NCBI GenBank assembly: GCA_015059285.1
Contig: SVAS01000001.1
Span: 327,291 to 391,290, forward strand
Direction: 5' to 3'
Source: Bacillota bacterium
GTDB taxonomy: Bacteria > Bacillota_I > Bacilli_A > RF39 > UBA660
Length of the DNA: 64,000 nucleotides
Shown here in pieces: positions 2,536-49,560 of the stretch. Below the pieces are notes generated by a model that was not told the DNA's origin, ran no database searches, and worked only from the letters and a program-made list of their open reading frames with translations. Made by a program: the position numbers and the translations under genes. Positions within the stretch are counted from its first letter, which is position 1, and each line of letters starts with the position of its first letter.

Positions 2536-3555
2536 ATGAATAAAAAAGGATTTACATTGATCGAGTTACTAGCAGTAATCGTAATACTAGCAATTATTGC
2601 ATTAATAGCCGTACCAGTTATTATGAATATAATAAGTAGTGCAAGAAAAAGTGCATTTGAAGATACAGCATATGGACTAATAAGTGCTGGGGAAATGTAT
2701 TATGCTCAAGAATTATTAGAAAATGGAATGACTTCAGATAAAGAATTTATCATAGAAGGTGGAGAATTTGTTGGAGAAAACAAACTAGAAGTTAAAGGGT
2801 CTTTACCAATAAATGGAAAAATAACTGTAACAAAGGATGGTAAAGTTGCAATAGCAGTAGAAAATGGAGCACATTGTGTAACAAAAGCAACAAGTGAAAG
2901 TGCAATCACAACAACAAAATATGAAGGAAGTTGTGAATATAAAAAGGTAGCCAATCCAATCATTACAACAAATACATTTTGTTTAATAGATGGAAGTGAA
3001 TGTGCGGTAGGAACAGAATTAGTAGTACAGGTAAATGCAACAACAACAAACACATTCTTTGTAATAGACGATGCTGAAAACACTTTAACTTTGCTTATGA
3101 ATAGAAATGTAGATGAAGAAACAGTAGCGTGGATAGCAAAAACAGATTATTTAACAGCAGGAGGAACAGAAGCAGATTATGGTGAATATGGAAATAACAC
3201 AACGGGGCCAATCACAGCTTTAAATTATTTAGAAAGAAAAACAAGTAGTTGGACAAATATATCAGCGAAAACATATACATTAGCAGATGATCAAGGAAGG
3301 TACACAATAGAAAGAACAAATGCAAGAGCAAGAATGTTAACAGAAACAGAAGCAACCAAAATAAAATCTTATGATTGGTCACATGACAATTTGGTTGCAC
3401 CATTATATGGTTATTGGACAAGTACTAGTGCAGGAAATTATTACACTGCTTTAGTAATGTATGTTGGTGGCATGGTTCGTGGTGGCTATGGTGTATATAG
3501 TGATAATTATTTTGGTGTTCGCCCAGTAATAGAAATACCTAAAACAATTATTTAA
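2536..3555 (+). CDS. Type IV pilin / pseudopilin-like protein: prepilin N-terminal cleavage/methylation domain plus a large Thr-rich C-terminal domain containing Cys pairs.
   Basis: N-terminus MNKKG|FTLIELLAVIVILAIIALIAVP is a class III signal peptide (G-1, E+5). Full length is 339 aa, much larger than ComGC-type pseudopilins. Confidence 0.75.
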   Translation: MNKKGFTLIELLAVIVILAIIALIAVPVIMNIISSARKSAFEDTAYGLISAGEMYYAQELLENGMTSDKEFIIEGGEFVGENKLEVKGSLPINGKITVTKDGKVAIAVENGAHCVTKATSESAITTTKYEGSCEYKKVANPIITTNTFCLIDGSECAVGTELVVQVNATTTNTFFVIDDAENTLTLLMNRNVDEETVAWIAKTDYLTAGGTEADYGEYGNNTTGPITALNYLERKTSSWTNISAKTYTLADDQGRYTIERTNARARMLTETEATKIKSYDWSHDNLVAPLYGYWTSTSAGNYYTALVMYVGGMVRGGYGVYSDNYFGVRPVIEIPKTII

Positions 3556-4992: not shown

Positions 4993-5970
4993 ATGAATAA
5001 GTGCTTAAAATATATAATTAGTATCTTTATAATAAATTTACTAATTATAGGTTTTATATATAAAAAAAATAAACAAGAATTATATACAACTAATTTATTT
5101 TATATGGATACTTATATTAATATAAAGTTTTATAGTAATAATGAAAAAAATGCCATAAAAGCTTTAGAAGAAGCAGAAAATTTATATGAAACTTATCACA
5201 ATTTGACTGATCGTTATAATAGTTCTAGTGAACTTTATTTAGTAAATCATACATTCAGTGAACTTGAAATAGATGAAAGATTATATAATTTAATTGATTA
5301 TTCTAAAAATTGGCATTCTAAAAGTAATGGACTTTTTAATATTAATATGGGAGATGTGATTGATATTTGGAAAAAATATCGTGATAGTGGTACTGGAATA
5401 CCTACTAAAGAAGAACTTAAGGTTAATATAGATATAAATAGTTTTACTTTACTGGAAAATAATACAATTTTAAATAAAAATGCTAATATTGATTTAGGTG
5501 GCATTGTTAAAGGATATGTTACTAATTTAGTAGGAGAGGCTTTTTCTAAACTTGGAATAGAGGACTATATTATTAATGCTGGAGGTAATGTTTTAGTTGG
5601 TAAAAAAGCTAAAGGTAAATATAAAATTGGTATTGAGAGTCCTATAAATACTGGAGAAATATATCAAGTAGTTACTGGAAATAATATTAGTGTAGTAACA
5701 AGCGGTAGTTATGAAAGATTTTATGAGTATAATGGAAAAATGTATCATCACATTATTAATCCTAATACTTTGTATCCAAGTGGATTTATGAAAAGTGTTA
5801 CTGTTGTTTGTGAAGATAGTGCTTTAGCTGATATATTATCTACAACTTTATTTTTAATGCCTATTGAAGATGGTAAAAATTATTTAAAACAATTTGAAAA
5901 TGTAGAAGCTGTTTGGTTTGATAATAATAACAATATAATAAAATCAGAGGGTTTTAATAAATATGAATAA
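4993..5970 (+). CDS. apbE: FAD:protein FMN transferase (ApbE family), membrane-anchored
   Basis: ApbE signatures: MDTYINIKFY..., DLGGIVKGYV, and a C-terminal ...DILSTTLFLM segment. N-terminal hydrophobic anchor. Confidence 0.8.
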   Translation: MNKCLKYIISIFIINLLIIGFIYKKNKQELYTTNLFYMDTYINIKFYSNNEKNAIKALEEAENLYETYHNLTDRYNSSSELYLVNHTFSELEIDERLYNLIDYSKNWHSKSNGLFNINMGDVIDIWKKYRDSGTGIPTKEELKVNIDINSFTLLENNTILNKNANIDLGGIVKGYVTNLVGEAFSKLGIEDYIINAGGNVLVGKKAKGKYKIGIESPINTGEIYQVVTGNNISVVTSGSYERFYEYNGKMYHHIINPNTLYPSGFMKSVTVVCEDSALADILSTTLFLMPIEDGKNYLKQFENVEAVWFDNNNNIIKSEGFNKYE

Positions 5971-6322
5971 AACTGATATAAAACTAATAGGTATTATTTT
6001 ATTAATCGCGTTAATCTTTCTATTAAGTTTTAAATTGTTTGAAAAAAATGATAATAAGCAAGCCATAGTATATTATGAAAATAAAAAAGTATTAACGGTT
6101 AATCTTAATGAAAAAAAAGAATATAAAGTAGATGGTTATAATGGTGAAGTTATTATTATTGTTAATAATGGGAAAATAAAAGTAGAACAAGAAAATAGTC
6201 CTTTGCATTTATGTTCTAAACAAGGGTATATTAGTAAGTCTTATGAAACAATAGTATGCTTACCAAATAAAATATCAATTAAAATAATAGGAAATGAAGA
6301 ATTAGATGTAGTAGTAAATTAG
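5963..6322 (+). CDS. NusG domain II-containing small membrane protein (ApbE/Gx-transporter-associated)
   Basis: N-terminal TM helix. Position between apbE and the Gx-transporter gene is the conserved synteny for this family. Overlaps the apbE stop by 8 nt. Confidence 0.55.
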   Translation: MNKTDIKLIGIILLIALIFLLSFKLFEKNDNKQAIVYYENKKVLTVNLNEKKEYKVDGYNGEVIIIVNNGKIKVEQENSPLHLCSKQGYISKSYETIVCLPNKISIKIIGNEELDVVVN

Positions 6323-6329
6323 GTGATTT

Positions 6330-6824
6330 ATGGAAATAAAAAAATATGCAAGATTATCACTTTTATTAGCGCTTTCTGTAGTTTTAAATTTAATAGAAAG
6401 TTCAATTCCTATTTTTAATGGTTTTATACCAGGATTGAAGCTTGGTTTGGCCAATACAGTTATTTTATTTGTTTTATATGTTTTTTCTTTTAAAGATGCT
6501 TTATATGTATCGATAACAAGAGTATTTATTGTTGGTATACTCAGAACTGGATTATTTTCAATTACATTTTTCTTTAGTTTAGGGGGAGCAATTTTAAGTA
6601 TACTTGCTATGAGCATATGTAAAAAAATATCTAAACTATCAATTATAGGAACTAGTATTATTGGTTCGATTTTCCATAGTTTAGGTCAAATATTAATAGC
6701 TATTCTATTAATAAAAACAACTAATATGATTTATTATTTACCATGGTTACTTTTATTTTCAATTCCAACAGGTATAATTACAGGTTTAATTACAAAAGAA
6801 TTAATTAAGTATTTTCAAAAATAA
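6330..6824 (+). CDS. Gx transporter family protein (heptaprenyl diphosphate synthase component I-like membrane protein)
   Basis: 164-aa polytopic membrane protein, MEIKKYARLSLLLALSVVLNLIESSIP..; typical partner of ApbE/FMN-binding proteins. Confidence 0.6.
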   Translation: MEIKKYARLSLLLALSVVLNLIESSIPIFNGFIPGLKLGLANTVILFVLYVFSFKDALYVSITRVFIVGILRTGLFSITFFFSLGGAILSILAMSICKKISKLSIIGTSIIGSIFHSLGQILIAILLIKTTNMIYYLPWLLLFSIPTGIITGLITKELIKYFQK

Positions 6825-6893
6825 AAATAGATACTTGAAATAAAATAAAAATTATTATACAATTATATTGTTATATGATCGAGGAGGTTAATT

Positions 6894-7367
6894 ATGAAAA
6901 AGATTTTAGCATTTGTTGCACTTATTTGTTTAATAGGTATTTCTGGATGTACACCAGTAGAAGAAGGAATTTATAAAGAAGGAACATATTATGGAACAGC
7001 AACTGATAATTATGGTGGTGAAACAAATACAGCTACTGCTATTGTTTATGTAGATGCTTCTGGAGTAATTAAATCCGTTACTTTAGATACTACTTATGTC
7101 AAAGATGGTGTTGTTACTACTAAAAAATCATTAGGTAATGAATATGGTATGAAAGGTGTTTCTGCTTCTAAAGGAACTATTGCAGGTGGTGCTGAATGGT
7201 TTGAACAAGTAGCAAATTTAGAAAAGAAGATTGTTTCAGAACAAGGTTTAGATTGGTTAGTTTGGTCTGATACAGACAAAACAGTTACTGATTCTGTAAG
7301 TGGTGTAACAATTAAAATCAATGCTTTAGTTGAAGCAGCAAACAATGCAATTAATCAAGCAAAATAA
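6894..7367 (+). CDS. FMN-binding domain lipoprotein (extracytoplasmic flavoprotein, PplA/RnfG-like FMN_bind)
   Basis: Lipobox LIGISGC. Gly/Thr-rich FMN_bind-like sequence T.TDNYGGETNTATAIVYVDASGVIKSV. Directly downstream of apbE. Confidence 0.65.
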   Translation: MKKILAFVALICLIGISGCTPVEEGIYKEGTYYGTATDNYGGETNTATAIVYVDASGVIKSVTLDTTYVKDGVVTTKKSLGNEYGMKGVSASKGTIAGGAEWFEQVANLEKKIVSEQGLDWLVWSDTDKTVTDSVSGVTIKINALVEAANNAINQAK

Positions 7368-7402
7368 TTATGTAAATTAAAATTACTGTTAAAGCAGTAA
7401 TT

Positions 7403-7428
7403 TTTTTGTTTATATAATTAAATTGTAT
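7403..7428 (+). terminator. Rho-independent terminator (ATTACTG-TTAAAG-CAGTAAT plus T-run)
   Basis: Inverted repeat and TTTTTTT after the FMN-binding gene stop. Confidence 0.6.
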
Positions 7429-7783: not shown

Positions 7784-7812
7784 TATCAATTTAATACGAA
7801 ATTAAATTGATA
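7784..7812. promoter_or_regulatory. Perfect 12-bp inverted repeat TATCAATTTAAT-acgaa-ATTAAATTGATA, candidate operator ending 1 nt before the RBS of the sigma-like regulator gene
   Basis: Seen directly in the sequence: the right arm is the exact reverse complement of the left arm, ends 1 nt before GGAGG, and is 13 nt upstream of the ATG at 7825. Confidence 0.55.
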
Positions 7813-7824
7813 GGAGGAATATAT

Positions 7825-8310
7825 ATGGCAAAAATGCCTAAAAGAAGAAAAAATAAGGATAATCCTTATACTCTAGAATACATAGAAGATAAAAACATTT
7901 ATAAAGTTAATTTTAAAGATAACAAAGGAAAATTAAATACGTTAGAAATAAGTGCTGATGTATATAAAGCAATGGATAAATTTGAACTAGAAGACATATC
8001 TCAAATGCATCAATTTGAGCGTCATATAGAACATTCTGAACTATTTGAAGGAACATTAAATGAAAGAGCTGTGGACAAGCCTCTTGCAGTAGAAGAAATA
8101 GTTGAAAATACTATTATAAATGAAGAACTTATAAGGGCAATTGGTGGTTTATCGGAAGTACAAAAAAGAAGAATAAAGTTATATTATTTTGAAGGTTTAA
8201 CACAAAAAGAAATCGCTAATAGAGAAGGAACTTCTTTGAGGGCAGTACAATATACTTTAAATAGCGCAATTAATAAATTGAAAGAAATTCTAAAAAATTT
8301 GCAAATTTGA
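7825..8310 (+). CDS. Sigma-70 region-4-only transcriptional regulator, phage ArpU/RinA-like or TcdR-like late/toxin-gene activator
   Basis: C-terminal HTH LSEVQKRRIKLYYFEGLTQKEIANREGTSLRAVQYTLNSAINKLKE is sigma region 4-like. No region 2 recognisable. Start trimmed to MAKMPKRR after GGAGG. Confidence 0.6.
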   Translation: MAKMPKRRKNKDNPYTLEYIEDKNIYKVNFKDNKGKLNTLEISADVYKAMDKFELEDISQMHQFERHIEHSELFEGTLNERAVDKPLAVEEIVENTIINEELIRAIGGLSEVQKRRIKLYYFEGLTQKEIANREGTSLRAVQYTLNSAINKLKEILKNLQI

Positions 8311-8337
8311 CTTCGTAAAATTGCTTTTGAGTGGGGA

Positions 8338-8374
8338 AACAGGTGAAAGGATAGATTGTATCCTTTCACCTGTT
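8338..8374 (+). terminator. Very strong 14-bp perfect hairpin (AACAGGTGAAAGGA-tagattgta-TCCTTTCACCTGTT) with a weak U-tract; terminator or RNA-processing/regulatory stem-loop
   Basis: Perfect inverted repeat 27 nt after the regulator stop; the downstream T-run is poor (CTTTGAAAA). Confidence 0.5.
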
Positions 8375-8687
8375 CTTTGAAAATTGAATAATGATAATTG
8401 AATACATAATGCTTCTTTTAAGCACGTTAGTAAGTTCGCTTGCGACTAATACTTGACTATGAATGCTAACAGATTATTAGCAATGCAATGATGAAGAAGT
8501 GTGATAATGATACTTCCACCTAGCGACAGTCTCAAACAATCGGAGTGGTTCTGATAAATACAGAAAGGTGAAATCCCTATGGTGCTGACATATCATCAGC
8601 CATTCAATTATCATGTGTAATAAAATTTTAGAAGAATTGCTAAATATTAGACTAAAACATAAAAAATATAGAAAGGTCGTGTAACGT

Positions 8688-9287
8688 ATGAACGAAACAG
8701 AACAAACTACAACTAATACAGGAGATTTTACTTTAGAAGATATTTATTTTAAAGATGCATTTACCCAAACTGAGGATAAATTAAATTTAGAAGTTGATAA
8801 TGCAAATATTAGTTGTTTAACTTCAAAAAACAATAAATTTAGTCTAGATGAGGATGGAAATTTAATTGTTAATAGCATCACATGCAGTCAAAGTGGGGAA
8901 ACAAGTGAAAGTTTGGATTTTAATCAAATATATCCAATTGGGTCAATTTACTTATCGGTAAACGATAGCAACCCTTCAATTTTATTTGGTGGTATTTGGG
9001 AACAACTTAAAGATCGTTTTTTGTTGGGTGCGGGAGATAATTATGCTAATACTTCTACTGGTGGTGAAGCATCTCATATTTTAAGTGTGTCAGAAATGCC
9101 GGCTCATAATCATAGAATTGGTTATGACCAAATATGGGGATATGGTGGTACTGCAAGTATTGCTTTAACTTCTGGTGGACCTTATTATGTGAGTTCAACA
9201 AATTATATTGGAAACACTGGCGGAAATCAAGCACATAACAATATGCCGCCTTATTTAACCGTATACATGTGGAAAAGAGTTAGTTAA
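8688..9287 (+). CDS. Phage tail-collar domain protein (tail-fiber-like, receptor-binding-type module)
   Basis: YPIGSIYLSVNDSNP..FGGIWEQLKDRFLLGAG....GGEASHILSVSEMPAHNH....GGNQAHNNMPPY matches the Collar domain consensus (G.W..L..RFLLG...GGE..H.L...EMP.H.H). Confidence 0.75.
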   Translation: MNETEQTTTNTGDFTLEDIYFKDAFTQTEDKLNLEVDNANISCLTSKNNKFSLDEDGNLIVNSITCSQSGETSESLDFNQIYPIGSIYLSVNDSNPSILFGGIWEQLKDRFLLGAGDNYANTSTGGEASHILSVSEMPAHNHRIGYDQIWGYGGTASIALTSGGPYYVSSTNYIGNTGGNQAHNNMPPYLTVYMWKRVS

Positions 9288-9336
9288 TTAATATATTACA
9301 ATTCTTCTAAAATGTATAATTTAAAGGAGAAATTTT

Positions 9337-12300
9337 ATGAAAGAAATAGAATTAAAAGAGTTAAGAAAAAAAAGAGAGAAACATTTTCTACAGGAAAATG
9401 GTAATATCGTAGCAAAAATATATGATGATGATGTACATTTTTTTAAAGATGGAAAATATGAAGAAATTGACAACACAATAATAATCAAAGATAATTACTA
9501 TACCAATAAGAGTAATGATTATAATGTATATTTTGGTAATGATAGTTATTTGATGAGAATGGAAAAAGATGATTGTTTTCTTAAATTTAAATTAGAAAAT
9601 GGTAATCATGATATAGTAAAAAAAGAAAACGGAAATGTTTGCTATGAAAATATATTAGATAACGTAGATATAAAATATTTTATTAAGTCTAATAAAGTTA
9701 AAGAAGATATTATTATTAAAAACAAAGAGGCAAACATTAAAAAAGTAAGTTTTATTATTGAAACCAACTTATCTTTATATGTGGTTAATAATAAAATTAA
9801 TGCGTTTAAAAATGATGATATTATTTTTGTTTTAGATGCTCCTTTCATGTATGATGCTAATGGTAACATAAATAAAAATATTTATTATGAATTAAAAAAA
9901 ACAGACAATCTTTATAAATTAGATTTGACATTAGATGAAAAATGGTTAACCCAAGCTGCTTATCCAGTTATAATTGACCCTACTATTACTGAGTATAGTG
10001 AAAATGATAGTGTAGTTGACACTTATATTTATCCTGGGGATACTGGTGTTGATAGAAATAGTCAGGACATTTTAAAAGCTGGTGTTGAAAGAATAAATGG
10101 CGTAGATAGAATTAATAGGACTCTATTAAGGTTTAACTTGCCGGAAATTGGAACCGGTAGCCAAATTATTAAAGCAGAATTGAGATTAATTGGTTACCCA
10201 CATATAGGAGAAACTTCTGAAAGTGATATCGTAAACATTCATAGTCTTACAACAGAATGGGAAGAAGATGAAGCTAATTGGGAAAATATGAATGATAAAT
10301 TTAATCCTAGATTAGAAGGTTCTTTCTATAGTGCCAGAAGTGTTAGAATGACATTAGAAGATGTTACTCCAAGAGAATGTACAGAAGATATAACAAATTT
10401 AGTAAAGAAGTGGTATTCAAGTAAAGAAAATTATGGAATAATGCTAAAAATGAATACAGAAGTGTATAGAAGTGACGTTATTCCAGCATTTTTTTCAAAA
10501 AACAATTCAGTATCTAATTATAATCCTAAACCACTTTTAGCAATTACATATAGAAACCAGAATGGTTTGGAAGATTATATGAATTATAAGAAACAAGCAT
10601 TTAGTAATGGAATGTCATATGTTAATACTTACAATGGAAATTTAACTACAATTTTTGATGTTGGTGCAACTATTGGTGGGATTAATCCGGTTAATTTAAG
10701 TTTAGTCTATAATACTAACGATGTTGTGTTGGAAAATAATTTAGGTGATGGTTTAGGATATAGATTTAATTTTAATCAAACGATAAAGCTCTTACCAATA
10801 GAAGAAGTTGAATATTTAGAATATATTGATGGTGATGGAACAATTCATTATTTTTACGAAACTGATGGAATCTACAAAGACGAAGATAACTTAAATATGA
10901 TTATAACTAAAGTTAATAATGAATACATTTTAGCGGATAAGAATGATAATAGAATGAAATTTGCAATTATCAATGAAGTTGGCTATTTAACTGAATTAGA
11001 AAATTTGAACCATGATAAAATTCAAATATTATATAATTCTAATAATCAAATAATAAAGATAATAGATCCAAATCTAGAAGAAATAAATATTTCAAGAGAA
11101 ACAAATAAAACAATCATTAGTAGTCCTGGAAAAACAGCTAATTTGATTTATAACGGAAATAAGCTCATATCTATACAAACTATTTTAGGTAATACAACAA
11201 TTACATATAATGATAAAAATATTATAGAAAGTATAACAGATGAGAATAATCAAAAATTGGCATATCAATATTATGAACAACAACCTTATCGTATGAAGAC
11301 AGTGACCGAATATGGCTTAAACAACGAAATGGGTAATTATTTTACTTTAGAATATAATTTTAATTCAACAACTATAGTTGATAATAAAGATAGAGCAAAT
11401 ACAATGACTTTTAATAATTTTGGAAATGCTGTTTCTATTACAACCTTAAAATCTAAAGAAGATGTAAAAGAAGCGTATGGGAAAAGGCTAATTTATGGTA
11501 GTAGTTATATAACTTCAGAAGGAGAGTATGCGCCTTATAAAAACAAACTACTTAACGAAGAAGTTTTTAATAAATGTATCAAAAATCACTTTCCTAACTC
11601 TAACTTTGAGGAAGATGACTTTGTATTTACCCCATGCGCGAACAATATTTTATACATTGTTGATGACGAATACTTAGAAGGTCCAAAATCTTTAGCGTTT
11701 ATAACTAAAGATTATAATCAATATATAACAAAAACAATATCTGTCCCTAAAGGAAAATATTACACATTTAGTTTTAATTTAATCAACCACATGTCTTTTA
11801 CAATATCACTTTCATATAAGGATGCCAATGATTATACTGTTAGCGAACGAACTTATGTTGACTATATAAATTTAGAATTTGAAAAACAGGAAGTAAGCAT
11901 TTTCTATCCTGAAGATGCAAAATCAGATTTAACAATAATGATTTCCGCTTATGAAATGGGGACATCCTATATAAATTCTATTCAATTAGAAGAAGGTGAT
12001 GTTGCTAATAGTTATAATTACATTTCTAATTCAGATTTTTCAAATGGTCTTAGTGACTGGGAATTAAGAGCACAAATTAATGATCAAGGGGACTATGTTA
12101 ATGCTGATGATAAATTTGAAGTAGTTACATTAGACAATGGATTAAATGCACTTAAAGTCAAGATGAATCCACTATATTCTACTGGTTTTTCAAAAACGTT
12201 TAAAGTTAGAGGTAAACCTGGTGATATTTTTACAATTGCTTTTTGGTATAAACATCAAGGATATAAAGGTTCGGATTACGCACAAGCGCCGAGACATAAT

Positions 12301-15300
12301 AACGTTATTATTAGATTTAACTATATTGACCAAAGTTATGGACATTGTATATCACCAAGTAGTTCATTTAATCCGAATGAAAATGAATGGCAATATTTTT
12401 CTGCCGATTTCGTAGCAGAAAAAGAATTTGATTCACTATATTTATCATTTTCACAAGGTTTTAATGGCAATGATTTTTATATAACTAATTTAAGTTTAGT
12501 TAAAGATAGTGGTAGTGTTAGTTTTAATTATGATGAAAAAGGAAATATAATTGGAAAGAGCGGTTTAAATAACGAATTAAGCGAATTTAATTATGATAAG
12601 AATAATCAATTAATAAAAATGACTGATTCCATGGGAAACAATCACACGTTTGAATATGATAAAGATGTTAGTGATAGAGTTATAAATGGCATATCTGCAA
12701 CTGGCATATCTAATAAAATAAAATATAATAGCGATGGAAATCCAATTGTTACAAAAATAGTTAATCATGGTAAAAATGAAGAAATATTATCCGGATTTTA
12801 TAAAGTTAAAGCAAAAGGTGCTAATAAATATATAAAAAACAATTATAACGTTTTAATATTAAAAGAAACTAATTGTAATCATCATTTATGGTTGCTTGAA
12901 AAAGTTGATGAAAACTATAGGATAAAACATTCTTTATTAAATAAATATATAAATATTTTGAATAATACGTTAATATTATCAGAAGAATATGCATTATTCA
13001 GTTTAATAAAAAATCAATGTAATAGTTTTTTGATCAAAGAAATAGAAAGTGGTAACTACATTAAAAACAATAATGATGTATTGGAAATTACTTCTTTGAT
13101 TGAAGATGATGATAGTTTTGAATTTTATTTTGAAAATGGAAACGAACTATTTATAGAAAACAACGCTGAATATACATCGGATAAAAGATTTATTAAAGAG
13201 ACTACGGATACTTTATTACATAAAACAGAATATGAAGTTGATGAGGGGACTGGATTAATTAAATCCGTAATAAATCCTAAAGGACAATTAACAACTTATG
13301 AATACAACGATAAACAACAATTATCAAAAATAATCACTAATGCAAAAACTATTGATTATGTTTATAATAGTAACAATTTGTTGGATAAGATAGTAGAAGG
13401 TAACAAAAGCTACCAATTTCAATATGATAATTTCTTAAATGTTAATCAAATTAAAATTGGCGATAATATTACCTTAATAACCAATAATTATGCACCAAAT
13501 AATGGAAATTTAATTAATTCAGTATATGGAAATAATGATATTGTTAGTTATGAATATGATGATTTTGATAGAGTCAGCAAAATATTTAGAATGAATGATA
13601 CCTATAATTATAAATATGATAATAATGGTAATGTTGCAAAAGTTTTTGGCAATGTAGACAAATGGAAATATTTCTATGATTCTGCCAAAAGACTGAATGA
13701 ATATAGATTAAATAATTTTAAAATAAAATATTTTTATGATAAAAATGATAACCTATATAGAAAAACTTATTGGCTTGATGACACAAATATCAACATTTGG
13801 AATAATGTACCTAGCTCAAGAATAGCTATTTATGGTATAGAGCAAATCAACGAATTTAATGATGATGACTGTATTACAAAAACGACAATAGGAAATGTTT
13901 CTCTTGATTATGATTATGATTATTTAGGTAGATTAACAAGCAGAAGTATAAATAATAATTATAAAACAGATTATCAATATGTAACTAATGGCAAAAGAAC
14001 ATCACTATTAGTAAAAAGTATTAAAAACAATAATGATTTATATAATTACAGATATGATAAATTAAATAATATCACTCACGTATATTACAACAATAGTCTT
14101 ATAAATAGGTATTATTATGATGAGTATAATGAACTTATTAAAGAAAACAATTATGTAACTAATGAAACAACAGAATATACTTATGATAACTATGGAAACA
14201 TATTAAATAAAAAAGTATATGCATTAAATACTAATAACTTATTAAGTCAAGACACTTATGAATATAATAATTCTAATTGGGTTGACCAATTAACTAGATT
14301 TAATAATGAAACTATCGTGTATGATGAAATAGGAAACCCACTTGCTATTGGTTCAAAAACATTATCATGGATAAACGGAAGACAATTGAGTGGTTATAAT
14401 GACTCAACAATTAATGCTAACTACAGATACGATAAAGATGGATATAGGATAAGTAAAATTGTAAATAATCAAGAAACAAAATATTACCTTGAAAATAATA
14501 AAATAATACTTGAAATTAAAGGTGATGATATTATATACTATATGTATAATGAAGTTGATGACATAATAGGATTTAAATATAATAATGATGTATATTATTA
14601 TATAAAAAATGTTAAAAATGATATAATTGGTATATTAGATAGCAGTCATACTCAAGTCGTAAAATATAATTATGATTCTTGGGGCAATATTATATCAATA
14701 ACAGATAATAATAATAATGACATAAGTAATACTTTAAATCATATAGGCAATATTAATCCATTTAGATATAGAAGTTATTATTATGATTCGGAAACAAATT
14801 TTTATTATTTAAACTCAAGATATTACAATCCTGTTTGGGGTAGATTTTTGAATGCTGATGGCATTGTTAATGATGGAGAAATTATAGGCTGCAATTTGTT
14901 CGCTTATTGTAATAATAATCCTATAAATTTAGTTGACCCTACTGGAGAGCTTGCACTTGCAGGCACTATAGGCGGAGTTTTGGGTGTGGTTGCAATTGTT
15001 GGTTCTATTTATTATGCAAGCAAAAGTCTGATAAAAAGTGCCACAAGTATTCCGAATGTAATATATGATACTAAAACAAAAATAGAAAATGCTATTGGTT
15101 CCATAGAGATTAACAAAACAGAAACTAAAACACAAACGCCTGCAATATCCGTTCCTAAAATAGAAAGTATTGACTTGGGCACACCTAAGTATAAACCTTG
15201 TACTGAGGCATGGCTATCTAATGGCGACGTGGCAAGAGGAAATAGATTAACAATTGATGAATCATATATCCATGTAAGCAATGGTCATGATGTAATGTGT

Positions 15301-15456
15301 GACAATCAGTTTTCTGCACATCAAGTAGCACAAAGATTTGTTGGTTATATTGGTCCGGAAATAGACAAAAAACAATTGCCTGGCAATAAGTATTATTGTC
15401 ACTATCATCCGGATAGAACGTCGCATAGACATATTTGGTTCTATTCAATGCAATAA
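9337..15456 (+). CDS. RHS/YD-repeat polymorphic toxin, 2039 aa. No signal peptide. N-terminal DNRLRE-like domain, about 30 YD repeats, RHS core ending at a DPTGE autoprocessing motif, then a C-terminal TM helix and a toxin tip of unknown family.
   Basis: Repeated YxYDxxGN/R motifs (e.g. YDEIGNPLAIGSKTLSWINGRQLSGY...YRYDKDGYRISKI). RHS core signature YYNPVWGRFLNADGIV...NPINLVDPTGE. C-terminal 170 aa comprise LALAGTIGGVLGVVAIVGSIYY... through ...YYCHYHPDRTSHRHIWF. Confidence 0.9.
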   Translation: MKEIELKELRKKREKHFLQENGNIVAKIYDDDVHFFKDGKYEEIDNTIIIKDNYYTNKSNDYNVYFGNDSYLMRMEKDDCFLKFKLENGNHDIVKKENGNVCYENILDNVDIKYFIKSNKVKEDIIIKNKEANIKKVSFIIETNLSLYVVNNKINAFKNDDIIFVLDAPFMYDANGNINKNIYYELKKTDNLYKLDLTLDEKWLTQAAYPVIIDPTITEYSENDSVVDTYIYPGDTGVDRNSQDILKAGVERINGVDRINRTLLRFNLPEIGTGSQIIKAELRLIGYPHIGETSESDIVNIHSLTTEWEEDEANWENMNDKFNPRLEGSFYSARSVRMTLEDVTPRECTEDITNLVKKWYSSKENYGIMLKMNTEVYRSDVIPAFFSKNNSVSNYNPKPLLAITYRNQNGLEDYMNYKKQAFSNGMSYVNTYNGNLTTIFDVGATIGGINPVNLSLVYNTNDVVLENNLGDGLGYRFNFNQTIKLLPIEEVEYLEYIDGDGTIHYFYETDGIYKDEDNLNMIITKVNNEYILADKNDNRMKFAIINEVGYLTELENLNHDKIQILYNSNNQIIKIIDPNLEEINISRETNKTIISSPGKTANLIYNGNKLISIQTILGNTTITYNDKNIIESITDENNQKLAYQYYEQQPYRMKTVTEYGLNNEMGNYFTLEYNFNSTTIVDNKDRANTMTFNNFGNAVSITTLKSKEDVKEAYGKRLIYGSSYITSEGEYAPYKNKLLNEEVFNKCIKNHFPNSNFEEDDFVFTPCANNILYIVDDEYLEGPKSLAFITKDYNQYITKTISVPKGKYYTFSFNLINHMSFTISLSYKDANDYTVSERTYVDYINLEFEKQEVSIFYPEDAKSDLTIMISAYEMGTSYINSIQLEEGDVANSYNYISNSDFSNGLSDWELRAQINDQGDYVNADDKFEVVTLDNGLNALKVKMNPLYSTGFSKTFKVRGKPGDIFTIAFWYKHQGYKGSDYAQAPRHNNVIIRFNYIDQSYGHCISPSSSFNPNENEWQYFSADFVAEKEFDSLYLSFSQGFNGNDFYITNLSLVKDSGSVSFNYDEKGNIIGKSGLNNELSEFNYDKNNQLIKMTDSMGNNHTFEYDKDVSDRVINGISATGISNKIKYNSDGNPIVTKIVNHGKNEEILSGFYKVKAKGANKYIKNNYNVLILKETNCNHHLWLLEKVDENYRIKHSLLNKYINILNNTLILSEEYALFSLIKNQCNSFLIKEIESGNYIKNNNDVLEITSLIEDDDSFEFYFENGNELFIENNAEYTSDKRFIKETTDTLLHKTEYEVDEGTGLIKSVINPKGQLTTYEYNDKQQLSKIITNAKTIDYVYNSNNLLDKIVEGNKSYQFQYDNFLNVNQIKIGDNITLITNNYAPNNGNLINSVYGNNDIVSYEYDDFDRVSKIFRMNDTYNYKYDNNGNVAKVFGNVDKWKYFYDSAKRLNEYRLNNFKIKYFYDKNDNLYRKTYWLDDTNINIWNNVPSSRIAIYGIEQINEFNDDDCITKTTIGNVSLDYDYDYLGRLTSRSINNNYKTDYQYVTNGKRTSLLVKSIKNNNDLYNYRYDKLNNITHVYYNNSLINRYYYDEYNELIKENNYVTNETTEYTYDNYGNILNKKVYALNTNNLLSQDTYEYNNSNWVDQLTRFNNETIVYDEIGNPLAIGSKTLSWINGRQLSGYNDSTINANYRYDKDGYRISKIVNNQETKYYLENNKIILEIKGDDIIYYMYNEVDDIIGFKYNNDVYYYIKNVKNDIIGILDSSHTQVVKYNYDSWGNIISITDNNNNDISNTLNHIGNINPFRYRSYYYDSETNFYYLNSRYYNPVWGRFLNADGIVNDGEIIGCNLFAYCNNNPINLVDPTGELALAGTIGGVLGVVAIVGSIYYASKSLIKSATSIPNVIYDTKTKIENAIGSIEINKTETKTQTPAISVPKIESIDLGTPKYKPCTEAWLSNGDVARGNRLTIDESYIHVSNGHDVMCDNQFSAHQVAQRFVGYIGPEIDKKQLPGNKYYCHYHPDRTSHRHIWFYSMQ

Positions 15457-15482
15457 TTAAAATAGAAATTGGGGGAATTTAT

Positions 15483-16238
15483 ATGTATATAAACAAGGTA
15501 ACTACTGAGGTTTATAAAAAGATACTTGATTATAAGTTAGAAAAGTGCAATTATGCATCTTTGACTGTATATACAGATCAACATTTAGATGAACATCTAG
15601 ATATTATTAATATTATTACATCCAATCCTAAATACTCTAAACAATATATTTTATCTAATTATTCAGAAATACTGTTAGGACAAATTTATAATGATTTTAA
15701 GAATGATAAAAGAATATATAATGTTAAGGAACATGTAAGAAAAATAAAAAAAAGTTCTTTTAGAAAATGTGAATCTAATGATGAATTGGAAAACTTTCTA
15801 TATCAGCATGAATCTGAAAATAGAAAATCATCTATATTTAGCGCCATACAAAGCTTTGTTTATAATAATTTTACAACCCAATTTATTGAAGAATATAGGA
15901 GTAAAATTGTAAAAATAAAGGATGAATTATATGAGCATGAACTCACACCATTCCATAAAAAAGAAGCGTTTTATAAAAAAGAATATATATTTCAGCTTGA
16001 TGATGAATTAAAACAAATTATACATAACACTTATTTATATGACTGGAGTTTTCCAATGAAATTAGAAGATTTAAGCTTGTTTGTTGAAAATTATTTGTGG
16101 ATATATTCAGTTACACATGAAGAACTATGCTATATTTATTGTGAAACAGAGGAAGAATATAATTATTTAAAATCAATGGGTGTTGAGTTCTATGAAGAAC
16201 ACTTTATTCCACAAGAAAAGCAAGAAATCGTTTTTTAA
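15483..16238 (+). CDS. Putative cognate immunity protein for the RHS C-terminal toxin (cytoplasmic, 251 aa)
   Basis: Sits immediately downstream; the long ORF's ATG at 15435 overlaps the RHS stop. The likely true start, ATG at 15483, follows RBS GGGGGA. No TM or signal peptide. The toxin-then-immunity order is typical. Confidence 0.6.
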   Translation: MYINKVTTEVYKKILDYKLEKCNYASLTVYTDQHLDEHLDIINIITSNPKYSKQYILSNYSEILLGQIYNDFKNDKRIYNVKEHVRKIKKSSFRKCESNDELENFLYQHESENRKSSIFSAIQSFVYNNFTTQFIEEYRSKIVKIKDELYEHELTPFHKKEAFYKKEYIFQLDDELKQIIHNTYLYDWSFPMKLEDLSLFVENYLWIYSVTHEELCYIYCETEEEYNYLKSMGVEFYEEHFIPQEKQEIVF

Positions 16239-35251: not shown

Positions 35252-36154
35252 TTATGCATTTGTATGATAATTATCATAGTTTTCTCTTAATTTTTCAGTA
35301 GATAAATGAGTATATATTTGGGTAGTAGAAATATTTGAATGTCCAAGTAGTTCTTGAATAGTTCTTAAATCTGCTCCATATTCTAACATATGGGTTGCAA
35401 AAGAATGTCTTAAAGTATGAGGTGAAAACTTAGTTTTTATGTTTTTTTGTTTAGCTAAATTTTGAATAATTTTGAAAAACATTTGTCTAGATATATTAGT
35501 TCCACTTTTATTTAAAAAGACATATTCACTATTATATTTTTTTATAAATTTTAAACGATGATTATAAATATATTCTTTTAAATATTCAGTTGCATAATCT
35601 CCTATTGGTATAATTCTTTCTTTATTTCCTTTACCAATAGTTTTAATCAAATTAAGTTCTAAGTCAACGTTAGAAAGCTTAAGATTGATTAATTCACTTA
35701 TTCTAAGTCCTGTTGCGTACATTAATTCAAGCATTGCTTTATTACGGTAATCATAATGATTATTTAAAGGAATATCTAAAAGAATTAATATTTCTTCAAT
35801 TGAAAGTACAGTTGGTAATGTTTTTTTTTGTTTGGGTATTATTATAAATTCTAAAGGATTATTATTAATTTTTTTAGTAATAATTAAATATTTATAATAT
35901 GTTTTTAAAGTAGATATTTTTCTAGCAATACTTCTATCACTAATATTATTTGTTTTTAAGTTTTTAATATAGTTTCTAATATCTGTTTCTTTAAGTTTGT
36001 ATAAATCTTTTTCTTGTCCATTTGGATTAAAAAAATTTAAAAAATTATATAGATCATTTATATATGATGAAATAGTATTTATACTATAGTTTTTATCAAA
36101 TAATAAATAGTTATAGAAATCTTTAAAAAGCTCTTGTTTTATATCCTTTAGCAT
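35252..36154 (-). CDS. xerD: Site-specific tyrosine recombinase XerD (chromosome dimer resolution)
   Basis: C-terminal catalytic region HTLRHSFATHMLEYGADLRTIQELLGHSNISTTQIYTHL; 300 aa. Confidence 0.85.
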   Translation of the reverse strand: MLKDIKQELFKDFYNYLLFDKNYSINTISSYINDLYNFLNFFNPNGQEKDLYKLKETDIRNYIKNLKTNNISDRSIARKISTLKTYYKYLIITKKINNNPLEFIIIPKQKKTLPTVLSIEEILILLDIPLNNHYDYRNKAMLELMYATGLRISELINLKLSNVDLELNLIKTIGKGNKERIIPIGDYATEYLKEYIYNHRLKFIKKYNSEYVFLNKSGTNISRQMFFKIIQNLAKQKNIKTKFSPHTLRHSFATHMLEYGADLRTIQELLGHSNISTTQIYTHLSTEKLRENYDNYHTNA

Positions 36155-45002: not shown

Positions 45003-45872
45003 TTATTTATGAAAGTATAATTTCACCTGTTCTTGTATATTTAATTCTAATTTTTCAATAGTACCATCCATATAAACTTTATTCATGTCATTTCTGACAC
45101 TTCTAGGAAAAATATTTGCCATATCGGCTTTATACAAATTACCATCTCTAGGTATTCTTGAATCAGTTACTATATACTTATCATCAATAAATTCCACAAT
45201 GAACTTATATGGTATAGAAGATCCGCTATCTTTTTTTAATTCATTATTTTCTAAATAATATTTTTCTTCTAAAACCCAAGCGTAAATTTCATAATGAAGA
45301 TTTTTCTTTTTTTCATTTAATAAGTAAATTCTAAAGCTTGCAAAACCTTTTTCATTTTTGTGATGCGTAGATTCACTATCCAACTTTTCACTTAAATAAT
45401 CATTTATAGCTATTTCAATTTCTTTTTCATGTAAATCTATAGCAGGTGTATAAGTATAACCCCAAGTACTAAATAATACAGGTTTATTATTTTTAATTCT
45501 ATTAATATCAACCAAAAATAAAGTAATAAAAATTATAAAACATAAAAGTATAAAACTAATAGTAGTTTTAAAAATTAATTTTATTTTATTAATCTTTTTT
45601 TCTGAATGTTTTATGGTGTTTAAAATATTTTCTTCAAATTTATCTTGGTAGTTTGTTTTGTTTAATTTTTCACCACTTAATAATTCATTAATTGTTATTT
45701 TTAATTCATCACATAATGGTTTTATTAATGATATATCTGGCATTCCACGGCCGTTTTCCCATTTGGAAATGGCACGATCAGTAACCCCTATTTTTTTAGC
45801 AAGCTCATCTTGGGTTAAATTTTGTTCTTTGCGAAGTTTAGCTATAAATTTTCCAATCTTATCTTGTTCCAT
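45003..45872 (-). CDS. Membrane-anchored XRE-family HTH regulator (paralog of the 972-1892 gene)
   Basis: N-terminal LTQDELAKKIGVTDRAISKWENG HTH aligns residue for residue with the 972-1892 product. One TM (ISFILLCFIIFITLFLV) plus an extracytoplasmic domain. Confidence 0.7.
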   Translation of the reverse strand: MEQDKIGKFIAKLRKEQNLTQDELAKKIGVTDRAISKWENGRGMPDISLIKPLCDELKITINELLSGEKLNKTNYQDKFEENILNTIKHSEKKINKIKLIFKTTISFILLCFIIFITLFLVDINRIKNNKPVLFSTWGYTYTPAIDLHEKEIEIAINDYLSEKLDSESTHHKNEKGFASFRIYLLNEKKKNLHYEIYAWVLEEKYYLENNELKKDSGSSIPYKFIVEFIDDKYIVTDSRIPRDGNLYKADMANIFPRSVRNDMNKVYMDGTIEKLELNIQEQVKLYFHK

Positions 45873-46001
45873 ATAATATTACTCCCTTCAAGAATAATTA
45901 TAATAGTAAAATAACTAAATTGCACCAAACGAATCGTAGAGTATTATGCTTTTAATTTGACAATATATAAAAAACTAGGTATATACCTAGTTATTATTTA
46001 T

Positions 46002-46047
46002 TGGTAGCGACGGAGAGATTCGAACTCACGACCTATCGGGTATGAAC
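46002..46047 (-). repeat. Displaced 3' half of a tRNA-Met(CAT) gene (anticodon loop to CCA). Left boundary of the integrated element; complementary to the 5' half at 52408-52445.
   Basis: Reverse complement GTTCATACCCGATAGGTCGTGAGTTCGAATCTCTCCGTCGCTACCA shows the anticodon-stem 3' side, T-arm, acceptor 3' strand and CCA. It pairs with the acceptor and anticodon-stem 5' strands of the truncated tRNA at 52396-52445. Confidence 0.65.
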
Positions 46048-46320
46048 TGTACTAAATGCTTTTTACATCCTTTTTTATGCTTTTATAACATTCATTTTTA
46101 TTGATGTAAAAATTATAATTTCCAAAAAACATTCAATAACTTTTAATATCTTTTCATAACTTTTATAAAAATATTGCCCCAAAAATTGCCACCACTTTAA
46201 TTATGCTTGAAATATTGTTTTATATTTATTTAAAAAATATACTTCCATTACTTCCATACTTCCACTAAATTATATCATATTTTGCTTATTTTTAATAAAA
46301 AAGATTAAACATTTTAGTAT

Positions 46321-46908
46321 TTAATCTTGGTTTTTAATAATTACTTGTAAAGTAGATATGAATTTTTGAGCTACTTCATAAGCATTTTTATATTTTTTAT
46401 TATTCTTATTAGTTTTTTTAGTAATAAATGTAATATATTCTTGTGGGCTTGATATTGAGTTTAAAACAACCTTTATTTGCAAATTAGTACAATAGTTATA
46501 TGTTATTGAACCACTGCTGTATGTTCTCTTAAATACTGCATTTTGTCTTGTCGCTGTATATGTTTGGTCTTTGTTATTTTCTACAATATCAGCTGAAACT
46601 ATATCTTTGAAATTATATTCATTATTATTTATAAGAACTTTCTTTTCAGTTTCATTTACATATAAATAAGCATTGTCATAACTTCCAATTTTTCGCCAAT
46701 TACCATTTGAATATTTAATATCAAGTGCTTTTATTTCTTTACTATCTACAACTTTATTATGTTTTTTTATATTTAAAACAAATAAAGCTACAACAATAAT
46801 CGTTGCTATACCAAAACCAACACTTTTTTCAGCAAAAGTCCCAGCACAAGTGAATATAAAAATTATTACTAATAATACATTTACAAACCAATAACCTAAT
46901 TTTTTCAT
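46321..46908 (-). CDS. Membrane-anchored hypothetical protein, cargo gene of the integrated element (possible exclusion/defence function)
   Basis: Two N-terminal TM segments, then a soluble domain; no family recognised. Confidence 0.5.
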   Translation of the reverse strand: MKKLGYWFVNVLLVIIFIFTCAGTFAEKSVGFGIATIIVVALFVLNIKKHNKVVDSKEIKALDIKYSNGNWRKIGSYDNAYLYVNETEKKVLINNNEYNFKDIVSADIVENNKDQTYTATRQNAVFKRTYSSGSITYNYCTNLQIKVVLNSISSPQEYITFITKKTNKNNKKYKNAYEVAQKFISTLQVIIKNQD

Positions 46909-47209
46909 ATTTAAACACCTCTTACAAATAAAAAAGGGACATTGTACTAACTGTCCCCGATACTACTATATCGGCTGACAATAAACTGCATACTACATCA
47001 TCTACCGATAATATACTGCATCGATTGATAGATTACTACATTTACTACATAATCAATCGATTTACTTCATCAAACAATAACAATAGACACTGCTGTTATC
47101 GTTTGACAATATAATTGTATCACAACTTTTGACAAAATGCAATACATTTTGCAATGCATACTTATTTTTATTTTTGCAATACTATAAATATGACTGGAGG
47201 TATTGCAAA

Positions 47210-47395
47210 ATGGCTTTTCAAATTAGACCAAATAGAAAAGAAACTGAAAATAAAACAATAAGATTTCCAATTAACTTGATAGAAAAAATAGAAGAGGCAA
47301 TCAAAGGAGAAGATGTATCATTTTCAAAATTTGTTATTCAAGCTTGTGAGTATGCTTTAACAAATATGAAGAAAGACAAAAAAGATAGCAAATAA
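47210..47395 (+). CDS. Small ribbon-helix-helix (CopG/Arc-like) DNA-binding protein
   Basis: Start trimmed to MAFQIRPNRKETENKTIRFPINLIEKIEEAIK after GGAGG. The beta-strand then helix pattern is typical of RHH proteins. Confidence 0.5.
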   Translation: MAFQIRPNRKETENKTIRFPINLIEKIEEAIKGEDVSFSKFVIQACEYALTNMKKDKKDSK

Positions 47396-47410
47396 CACTG
47401 CTATCTTCTT

Positions 47411-48658
47411 TTAATTATTAAATATATCACTCATTTTATTAGTCATAACATTTGAAAGTGTTTCTTTTGATTTATCAGTTGTTTTGATGTATATATTGCT
47501 TGTAGTACTTATATTAGAATGACCCAATGTTTTTGATATTGCATTTATTGGTTGTTTTTCTTCTAGTGATAAAGTGGCAAATGTATGCCTAAATGAATGT
47601 GGTGTATAATCTTTTAAATTATGTTTAGATGTAAATTTCTTTAACCAATGATGACAAGTACACGGGTTTATTGGCAAACCATTTTCTTGAGTAAATATTT
47701 TATCATTGTCTTTTATAAAACTATTTCCTTTTTCATCCTTTAACTCAATTTTATATTGCCATAAATCGCCCATAACACTTTTTAATTCGTTTTGTTCTAC
47801 TTGATGCATCTTTAATAATTCCAATACATCTTGACCGATATAAACTTCTCTTATTGAATTTTTAGTTTTTGGTGGTTTTTCAACCATACCTATTTTTGGT
47901 ATTCTTTGTATGGTTTTTGTTATCTTTGTTTTACCCGTTTTAAAGTTTATATCTTTCCATTCTAAAGCATTTATCTCGCCAATTCTTAACCCCGTATCTA
48001 AAGCAATTCTAACCATACATTGATATTTTAATTTTTCTTTTCCTAAATCTTGAGCTAAATATTTTAAATCGTTTTCATCTAAAAATACTATCTCTTTTTT
48101 TTCAGGTTTAGGAGTTGGAAAATTCTTTTTGTGTAAAGGGTTTTTAATAATGATTTCATCATCAACAGCACAATCTAAAATACTACAAAAAACATCGTGT
48201 ATATTCTTTAATGTCTTTTCACTTAAACCTTTATTACTATTATTTTTATTAGCACCTTTTTGTCTTAACTTTTCATAAAATCTAACAACCATTAAATCAG
48301 TTATTTCAACAAGTTTGTATTGACCGAACTCGCCAATCAATCTATTAACTGTATTTGAATAATCGGTATAAGTACTTGGAGCTAAACCCGATTGCTTTTT
48401 AATATATAGCCAATTTTCAGCATATTGCTTTAAAAATATACTTTTATTTGTTGTTTGATTGTTTTTTATTTCATTTTCAAATTTATAATTTTCTTCTTCT
48501 AAAAATTTTATAATTTTAGTATTACTTAAACCTAGTGGAACACGGACATCTCTTTTTGAATATTTTGTATTTCCGTTTTTCAATCTCCCGTTTGCCACTC
48601 TTAAAGTATATACTTTTTCGCCACTTTTTAGTGTTCTTTTTAATACTGGTTTTACCAT
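47411..48658 (-). CDS. int: Tyrosine-type site-specific integrase (phage integrase family)
   Basis: C-terminal catalytic region ..RIALDTGLRIGEI..HSFRHTFATLSLEEKQPINAISKTLGHSNISTTSNIYIK (R..H..R..Y); 415 aa. Confidence 0.88.
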   Translation of the reverse strand: MVKPVLKRTLKSGEKVYTLRVANGRLKNGNTKYSKRDVRVPLGLSNTKIIKFLEEENYKFENEIKNNQTTNKSIFLKQYAENWLYIKKQSGLAPSTYTDYSNTVNRLIGEFGQYKLVEITDLMVVRFYEKLRQKGANKNNSNKGLSEKTLKNIHDVFCSILDCAVDDEIIIKNPLHKKNFPTPKPEKKEIVFLDENDLKYLAQDLGKEKLKYQCMVRIALDTGLRIGEINALEWKDINFKTGKTKITKTIQRIPKIGMVEKPPKTKNSIREVYIGQDVLELLKMHQVEQNELKSVMGDLWQYKIELKDEKGNSFIKDNDKIFTQENGLPINPCTCHHWLKKFTSKHNLKDYTPHSFRHTFATLSLEEKQPINAISKTLGHSNISTTSNIYIKTTDKSKETLSNVMTNKMSDIFNN

Positions 48659-48786
48659 TTTTTTACCTCCTAATATAGATTTAATTTTAATTTAATGCTA
48701 TAATTGGAGTACATAAAAGAAATCTCGCCGAAAGTATTTTATGTACTCAAGACTTTACCATTGCCGTGGTATTGTCTTTTTTTATT

Positions 48787-49560
48787 CTATTTTTGAGAAT
48801 TTAACCATTTAATATAGTCATTTTTTGTAATCTTATTTTGATTAAATAAATCTACTTTTTTTGTATTTTCAATTTTAAATTTATTGAATTTTAATTCAGC
48901 ATCTTTTCGCTTTTCATCATCTTTTGTTCTTAATGCTTTATTTCTTAATGTATTATAAACTTGTTTATGAAGTTTAAAGATTTCATCATCTTTTATTTTT
49001 TGCTGATGCTGTATGTATTTATATGCTTGATTACATTGCATTGTCGTATATACTTCATCGTTTCTATAACAAAATTTTGTATCTTTGGTTGTTCTAGGAA
49101 TAAACCATTTTTTACAATTCTTACATCTTTTTACTATATAACCATATCTTGAAAAATGCAATATACATACTAAAGGGACATCGCTTATATCTTCTATTTC
49201 ATATATTGTAGTTGGCGAAGTTAAAGCCACTTTTTTTAGTTTGTTTGAATATTCTTTGATTTCTTTTTGAGTTGGTAGTTTTTCAAGTGTAGCATTTTCT
49301 AAATCGTTTGGAATAGGAAGTTCTATTCCTTTATTTATGTATTTAACATTATAGTTTTTAGCATACCAACTTAAATAAGCAACTACATTATTAAAATAAT
49401 CATCATTTGATTTGTTTAAATCATCTAAAACATTTAAAAATATATTTTGATGCTTACTTAAATGATTAAACACTTCAATATTTGCATCCATTCTAATATC
49501 TTTTTTACCATTTTCTTTAATAGTTATATCAAGATTTTTTCCCTCGATGTGTACTTCCAT
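48787..49560 (-). CDS. Hypothetical protein with Cys4 cluster (CKNCKKW..C..C), divergent from the cro/xis genes; candidate master repressor by position
   Basis: Divergent arrangement across a 140-bp intergenic region, as for stl/str of PICIs; no recognisable HTH. Confidence 0.4.
   Translation of the reverse strand: MEVHIEGKNLDITIKENGKKDIRMDANIEVFNHLSKHQNIFLNVLDDLNKSNDDYFNNVVAYLSWYAKNYNVKYINKGIELPIPNDLENATLEKLPTQKEIKEYSNKLKKVALTSPTTIYEIEDISDVPLVCILHFSRYGYIVKRCKNCKKWFIPRTTKDTKFCYRNDEVYTTMQCNQAYKYIQHQQKIKDDEIFKLHKQVYNTLRNKALRTKDDEKRKDAELKFNKFKIENTKKVDLFNQNKITKNDYIKWLNSQK

Follow-up and report, generated by a model that had tools for sequence, protein, structure and literature searches.

A compact, conserved apbE-eetA-eetB-lipoprotein cassette in an uncultured member of the Bacilli, with a probable role in extracytoplasmic protein flavinylation

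Described flavinylation systems and the four-gene locus

In Listeria monocytogenes, the flavin branch of the extracellular electron transfer (EET) locus involves FmnB, EetA, EetB and FmnA, as well as PplA (Light 2018; Rivera-Lugo 2023, PMC9973259). Export of flavin adenine dinucleotide (FAD) for the flavinylation of PplA by FmnB requires EetB, a FAD-binding membrane protein resembling the S subunit of energy-coupling factor (ECF) transporters, together with the ECF-T-like protein FmnA and EcfA/A' (PMC9973259). In Treponema pallidum, TP0171 (Tp15), a lipoprotein of ~15 kDa, was shown experimentally to be flavinylated on Thr114 by the ApbE of that organism (Deka 2015, PMC4436053). The flavin branch of the Listeria locus is the closest system in function and composition, and TP0171 the closest substrate precedent, for a four-gene cassette at positions 4993-7367 of a 64-kb stretch of Bacillota DNA with about 24 % GC (contig SVAS01000001.1 of assembly GCA_015059285.1, positions 327,291 to 391,290 of the forward strand), referred to here as the window. 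The cassette is probably a stand-alone operon, apbE(fmnB)-eetA-eetB-lipoprotein, for extracytoplasmic protein flavinylation, and its product is best read as a surface flavoprotein similar to PplA or TP0171. The locus is a compact and conserved example of the published association of apbE with eetA and eetB, to which the gene for the predicted substrate is joined.

The original prediction for this DNA had described four co-directional, tightly spaced genes, and four open reading frames (ORFs) on the + strand, encoding proteins of 325, 119, 164 and 157 amino acids, were found at exactly the coordinates that it gave. The first two overlap by 8 nucleotides (nt), the second and third are separated by 7 nt, and the gap of 69 nt ahead of the fourth contains a ribosome-binding site, GAGGAGG. 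A terminator-like hairpin with an AT-rich stem of 11 base pairs followed by a U-run (7379-7407, + strand) starts 12 nt past the stop codon of the last gene; its minimum free energy from RNA folding is -10 kcal/mol (z -2.89), which was equalled by 2 of 200 shuffled sequences. A consensus terminator scan demands three G-C pairs and therefore overlooked this hairpin, reporting zero terminators. A consensus promoter scan returned 58 promoter-like sites as compared with 44.7 +/- 6.8 in shuffled sequences, a result that is uninformative at 24 % GC.

The first gene (4993-5970, + strand) encodes an FAD:protein flavin mononucleotide (FMN) transferase of the ApbE/FmnB type, which matches the Pfam profile PF02424 over its full length (profile positions 1-266 of 266) with 221 bits against a cut-off of 25.6. 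Its top match in the PDB is 7ESA (E 1e-32), and in this alignment Ser237, Arg242, His253 and Asp280 correspond to the catalytic residues Ser257, Arg262, His273 and Asp301 of FmnB (review, PMC12052999), the published numbering being given back by a constant offset of +19. Hydropathy indicates a single hydrophobic signal-anchor helix at the N-terminus (residues 4-22) with no lipobox, and this helix is predicted to place the enzyme outside the cytoplasm. In T. pallidum, Asn55 of the ApbE homologue Ftp (TP0796) confers FAD pyrophosphatase activity, and the N55Y substitution abolishes that activity while transferase activity is kept (PMC4436053). The equivalent position was found by comparing alignments to 4IFU (wild type, lsaNrdds) and 4XDT (variant, lsaYrdds). 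It is occupied by Tyr75 in the window enzyme, as in the transferase type, which predicts that the enzyme serves as a dedicated transferase.

The second gene (5963-6322, + strand) encodes a NusG_II protein of 119 amino acids that matches PF07009 with 94.6 bits (cut-off 29.6), has a single N-terminal transmembrane helix by hydropathy (residues 8-26) and has relatives in the PDB, Lin0431 (3LD7/2KPP) and 4ESN, at E ~3e-7. The third (6330-6824, + strand) encodes a polytopic membrane protein of 164 amino acids with multiple hydrophobic segments by hydropathy, which matches PF07456 (Hpre_diP_synt_I, or 'Gx transporter') with 137.3 bits (cut-off 30; profile positions 1-147 of 147) and for which sequence search found no PDB relative. 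The families to which the first three genes had been assigned are thus borne out by wide margins over the Pfam cut-offs. The original prediction also held that the cassette occurs without ndh2, eetAB and dmkAB; ndh2, dmkA and dmkB were indeed not found in the window, but eetAB is present. Homologues of eetB were defined as PF07456 by Rivera-Lugo et al. 2023 (PMC9973259), and Data Set S1 of that study equates NusG_II (PF07009) with EetA and Hpre_diP_synt_I (PF07456) with EetB, so the two middle genes are an eetA/eetB pair, the portion of the Listeria locus concerned with FAD export. DUF1312 is the former name of NusG_II, and lmo2639, which lies inside the Listeria EET locus, was described in an older Listeria screen as 'contains DUF1312'. 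A literature search joining flavinylation, ApbE and NusG returned no paper; the connection came through PF07456 and PF07009 in PMC9973259 and its supplement. By analogy with Listeria EetB, the protein encoded here is predicted to be an ECF-S-like subunit for FAD export. Its gene adjoins eetA and apbE in the window and in 67 of 70 reference loci (see below), and in the published survey eetB adjoins eetA in 3,328 of 4,214 genomes and apbE in 2,169 (PMC9973259). Two cysteines in the beta-domain of EetA (LHLCSKQGYIS and IVCLPN) align with cysteines of PDB 4ESN, and this pair might form a disulfide or a metal site.

Homologues of the lipoprotein, at 45-99 % identity, come solely from metagenomes or metagenome-assembled genomes (MAGs) labelled Bacilli, Mollicutes/Tenericutes/Mycoplasmatota or 'Clostridium sp. 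CAG', and a pattern scan located relatives in 401 species-level reference genomes. A census of the cassette was taken on the best 80 reference loci, 70 of which had enough upstream sequence to judge. ApbE, EetA, EetB and the lipoprotein are encoded in the same order and on the same strand in 67 of these 70, with lipoprotein identities of 45-73 %, and the hosts of the cassette are all uncultured low-GC Bacilli- or Mollicutes-like MAGs. The cassette of the window lies in the context ftsA-ftsZ-sigE-sigG-ylmC-GT4, while in another context pnp and a cysteine desulfurase gene are upstream and a two-component system is downstream. Since the same ordered cassette recurs amid unrelated flanks, it behaves as a unit and its arrangement is not a matter of chance. 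On this reading, ApbE, EetA, EetB and a substrate make up a minimal unit that can exist by itself in a conserved operon. This lends support to the published proposal that ApbE is the specific recipient of the FAD delivered by EetB.

Some loci depart from the four-gene arrangement. A lipoprotein homologue without upstream genes for ApbE, EetA and EetB is found at L028, L045 and L084, where inspection of ORF N-termini revealed no obvious redox neighbour; the gene may have been relocated there, or be present as a second copy. In some lineages, the window not being one of them, an optional fifth gene lies between eetB and the lipoprotein gene (L006:5908-6933, L087:3261-4343, L039:5963-6922 and L046:3984-4928). 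Its products of 315-360 amino acids have no Pfam match and no signal peptide, are rich in Lys, Asn and Glu and appear coiled-coil-like. They fall into two groups with no BLAST link between them, L006 and L087 being 30 % identical and L039 and L046 52 % identical.

The lipoprotein and its variant motif

The fourth gene (6894-7367, + strand) encodes a lipoprotein of 157 amino acids with a divergent FMN_bind fold, which is the predicted substrate of ApbE. Its lipobox, I-S-G-C19 (6939-6950, + strand), predicts lipidation of Cys19, and Gly18 and Cys19 are invariant in 52 homologues. Searched as a single sequence against Pfam and NCBIfam, the protein matches no family significantly, with no Pfam hit at E<=0.01. 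Phmmer nevertheless matches it to PDB 2KZX (A3DHT5 of C. thermocellum) at E 1e-5, a value that becomes 1e-13 with a profile of the 52-sequence family, and its D-S-V-S-G-V-T is aligned to the D-A-I-S-G-A-T of 2KZX. Individually, 38 of the 52 family members match the FMN_bind profile PF04205 at E<=0.01, the best at 1e-6. Based on this profile, family and structural evidence, the fourth protein is an FMN_bind-type domain protein; it consists of one divergent domain with a helical insertion of ~40 residues. One of the homologues, P0035, bears the name 'major membrane immunogen (membrane-anchored lipoprotein)' in one source.

The published flavinylation motif is D-x-x-[S/T]-G-A-[S/T], the last Thr or Ser being the acceptor. 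The lipoprotein has the variant D133-S-V-S-G-V-T139 (7290-7310, + strand), with Thr139 as the predicted acceptor, and no other ORF in the window contains the pattern D..[ST]G[AVC][ST]. Thr139 is invariant among the 52 homologues, and Asp133 and Ser136 are each at least 90 % conserved. The original prediction was right to expect a flavinylation motif in this protein, here in a variant form in which Val replaces the canonical Ala. Replacement of Ala by Val in a model substrate leaves ~50 % flavinylation (ApbE review, PMC12052999), and the variant is therefore compatible with modification. It may reflect co-adaptation of the lipoprotein with its cognate enzyme. With a lipoprotein subfamily that has Val or Cys in the motif and falls below the Pfam threshold for FMN_bind, surveys based on that threshold would under-count flavinylation substrates of this kind.

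The analogy with FmnB and PplA that the original prediction had drawn holds. The cassette and the Listeria EET locus have in common an ApbE with the same catalytic Ser, Arg, His and Asp, the pair of EetA (PF07009) and EetB (PF07456), an FMN_bind-type lipoprotein with a C-terminal D-x-x-S-G-x-T, and the organization of these genes as one co-directional cluster. Unlike the Listeria locus, the cassette has no ndh2, dmkA, dmkB or fmnA (ECF-T) nearby, its ApbE is anchored by a helix rather than being a lipoprotein, and its own lipoprotein is distinguished by the single divergent domain, the helical insertion and the Val in place of Ala. TP0171 resembles the window lipoprotein in being a lipoprotein of ~15 kDa with one NqrC-type motif near the C-terminus. 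It differs in having the canonical T-G-A-T, its enzyme Ftp has Asn55 where the window ApbE has Tyr75, and no operon joining the genes for Ftp and TP0171 to eetAB is described. When the family was compared by hhalign with a TP0171 sequence that had been checked against Thr114 and Cys19 only, a collinear alignment of 126 columns brought lipobox and motif into register, but the match is statistically weak (E 0.0018, probability 15 %) and at most suggests relatedness; BLASTP against the same TP0171 sequence was not significant. The nearest solved structures are CPE2226 (PDB 3O6U, C. perfringens) and A3DHT5 (PDB 2KZX), both uncharacterised proteins with identities of 23-28 %, the latter having the canonical Ala. 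SaFMN3 and CbFMN4 (PDB 8P2A and 8P2B; PMC10339131) were compared as single FMN-binding domains of multi-flavinylated proteins. Those proteins have tandem domains with 3-4 flavins and a proposed role in longer-range transfer, whereas the window lipoprotein has one domain, an insertion and a lipid anchor.

Proposed pathway and competing explanations

Based on homology to Listeria EetB, EetB of the cassette would bind FAD in the cytosol and carry it across to the outer side of the membrane, and a shared ECF-T/EcfA-A' module encoded elsewhere would presumably energise this step. EetA, which crosses the membrane once and has a NusG_II beta-domain, is the conserved partner of EetB. The N-terminal helix of ApbE would anchor the enzyme with its catalytic domain outside, where, with FAD and Mg2+, it would link FMN to Thr139 of the lipoprotein as a phosphoester and release AMP. 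The resulting lipid-anchored flavoprotein could then act as a one- or two-electron carrier at the cell surface, analogous to PplA or TP0171. The locus flags a probable surface redox protein in uncultured gut Bacilli, and it reveals no new mechanism.

Partners for such a pathway were sought by Pfam among the scanned ORFs of the 64-kb window, with upstream genes covered through the conspecific contig L086. The ORFs scanned encode housekeeping, sporulation, cell-wall and mobile-element functions. None matched a type-II NADH dehydrogenase, Rnf/Nqr, NapH-like, MsrQ-like, PepSY, DsbD or cytochrome protein; none was ndh2, dmkA, dmkB, fmnA or any quinone-biosynthesis gene; and there was no match to PF12801, PF01794, PF03929/PF16357, PF02683 or PF03116, nor one resembling RnfB, NqrF, NosZ or PceA. 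Flanks pooled from 14 loci of diverse contexts gave 109 ORFs in which each Pfam family occurred four times at most, those that recurred being housekeeping families. Among the 25 most frequent families of these flanks, a set that leaves singletons outside, there was no ECF-T or ECF-A, ndh2, rnf or other key gene. Since none was found in the window and none recurs in the flanks, neither the electron donor nor the acceptor of the presumed flavoprotein appears to be encoded in cis, here or in relatives. The original prediction had suggested that the flavinylated lipoprotein may have a different extracytoplasmic redox role, and the lack of a nearby partner gene speaks neither for nor against this. 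Méheust et al. 2021 (PMC8238504) defined EET operationally by a transmembrane K03885 within five genes of apbE or FMN_bind. The five genes upstream of the cassette encode sigma factors, a helix-turn-helix (HTH) protein, a pilin-like protein, a PRC-barrel protein and GT4, those downstream encode sigma-like, Gp10_C and RHS proteins, and no transmembrane K03885 is among the five genes on each side. The same study defined nine other flavinylation systems (RNF, NQR, Nos, organohalide, NapH-like, MsrQ-like, PepSY-like, DsbD and NQR/RNF-like), and by its definitions the cluster lies outside all ten.

Several observations weigh against a self-contained flavinylation operon. At a permissive threshold, the lipoprotein scores 12.9 bits against FMN_bind PF04205 (E 0.18; cut-off 22), so its assignment as an FMN_bind lipoprotein in the original prediction fails as a single-sequence check, while it stands on the profile, family and structural evidence; a Foldseek search of the PDB with the lipoprotein gave no match. 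The canonical Ala is absent from the motif across the whole lipoprotein family, the position being Val in 49 and Cys in 15 of the reference loci in which the motif pattern was found, with no genuine Ala. Covalent FMN on members of this family stands as a prediction from sequence. Deletion of eetA has no phenotype in Listeria (PMC9973259), which leaves one of the four genes without an assigned role. The energy for export is unaccounted for in that no ECF-T, ECF-A/A' or ABC ATPase is present among the scanned window ORFs; by analogy with ecfA/A' in Listeria, the cognate ECF-T and ECF-A/A' may be encoded elsewhere. Similarly, no membrane electron-transfer component was present in the scanned window ORFs and none was recurrent in the flanks of relatives.

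It is possible, though unlikely, that the cassette is instead the flavin half of a complete Listeria-type EET chain whose ndh2, dmkA, dmkB and fmnA genes are located elsewhere in the genome, with the lipoprotein serving as the equivalent of PplA, from which electrons would go to iron, to flavin shuttles or to flavinylated reductases. Each of the four gene families indeed also occurs in the Listeria EET locus, and the alignment of ApbE to 7ESA fits the numbering of FmnB. However, neither a transmembrane Ndh2 nor a quinone-biosynthesis gene is present in the 64 kb or recurrent in the 109 flank ORFs of 14 relatives, and the neighbourhood falls outside the operational definition of EET (transmembrane K03885 within five genes; PMC8238504). 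The window lipoprotein, moreover, has one FMN_bind-like domain. PplA has two FMN_bind domains, and hosts that are represented by MAGs only and appear to have small genomes would often lack quinones; both points would count against an EET chain. A more doubtful alternative, rated quite unlikely, is that lipoproteins with S-G-[V/C]-T and the co-inherited ApbE, EetA and EetB form a distinct surface flavoprotein system, without partners, in uncultured gut Bacilli whose genomes appear to be reduced. If so, the lipoprotein would escape standard surveys based on Pfam, and some of the 'orphan apbE' genomes could be explained in this way. Electrons would be drawn or delivered by a route unlike those of the ten defined systems, for example directly via EetA/EetB or to acceptors derived from the host or diet, and ApbE and its substrate would be a cognate-specific pair of which the variant motif is the mark.

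An improbable explanation is that the lipoprotein is not a substrate of ApbE at all, and that it binds flavin non-covalently or has another role while ApbE and EetAB serve a target elsewhere, such as RnfG or RnfD. The sub-threshold Pfam score and the family-wide change of Ala to Val or Cys are in keeping with this idea, as is the colocalisation of eetB with Rnf in 572 Clostridia genomes (PMC9973259). Against it, Thr139 is invariant, and Asp133, Ser136 and Gly137 are highly conserved, in homologues of 45-99 % identity; the lipoprotein gene is inherited with apbE in 67 of 70 genomes; the Ala-to-Val substitution permits ~50 % flavinylation even with a non-cognate system (PMC12052999); and no rnf genes were present in the scanned window ORFs or among the frequent families of the pooled flanks. 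Least probable, and to be given very little weight, is a flavin-salvage module of the sort proposed for T. pallidum, in which ApbE would work mainly as an FAD pyrophosphatase and flavin captured by the lipoprotein would be imported through EetB. The hosts do look like reduced-genome, host-associated Bacilli- or Mollicutes-like MAGs, and Ftp of T. pallidum has dual activity (PMC4436053). The pyrophosphatase activity of Ftp depends on Asn55 (PMC4436053), however, and the Tyr75 found at this site in the window enzyme argues against salvage. In addition, EetB failed to replace RibU in flavin uptake, the substrate-binding subunits being strictly directional (PMC9973259), and an Rfam scan found no FMN riboswitch. 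A stand-alone operon for extracytoplasmic flavinylation is thus preferred over these alternatives.

Neighbouring genes and other features of the window

Large type IV pilin-like proteins with an N_methyl motif (339-549 amino acids) are found repeatedly near the cassette in several relatives. One is encoded upstream of the cassette in the window (2536-3555, + strand) and one downstream of it in L001, and L086 also has such a protein.

Downstream of the hairpin, the window contains genes for a sigma-70-region-4 protein (7807-8310), a protein with the Gp10_C (phage baseplate) domain (8688-9287) and an RHS/YD-repeat protein of 2,039 amino acids (9337-15456). A small ORF that overlaps the last of these (15435-16238) has no Pfam match and is possibly an immunity gene. 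The original prediction had placed the insertion of a toxin island immediately downstream of the cassette, and this is plausible insofar as the block 7807-16238 was not found downstream of the cassette in the 80 reference loci or in L087, a 76 % relative that has comEA-comEC at that position. The block is present in the 99 % identical conspecific contig L086, and it is plausibly a lineage-specific acquisition. Between the first two of its ORFs, and upstream of the RHS/YD-repeat gene, Rfam places the cis-regulatory 'pemK RNA' motif RF02913 (8504-8582, + strand) with 48.2 bits against a gathering threshold of 34.8.

A phage-type integrase gene (47411-48658) occurs together with genes for an HTH regulator (45003-45872) and a DUF6076 protein (48787-49560), which suggests that the region 45003-49560 is another integrated element. 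A tRNA gene lies beyond the integrase region at 52301-52374, and a separate XerC/D-like recombinase is encoded at 35252-36154 on the - strand.

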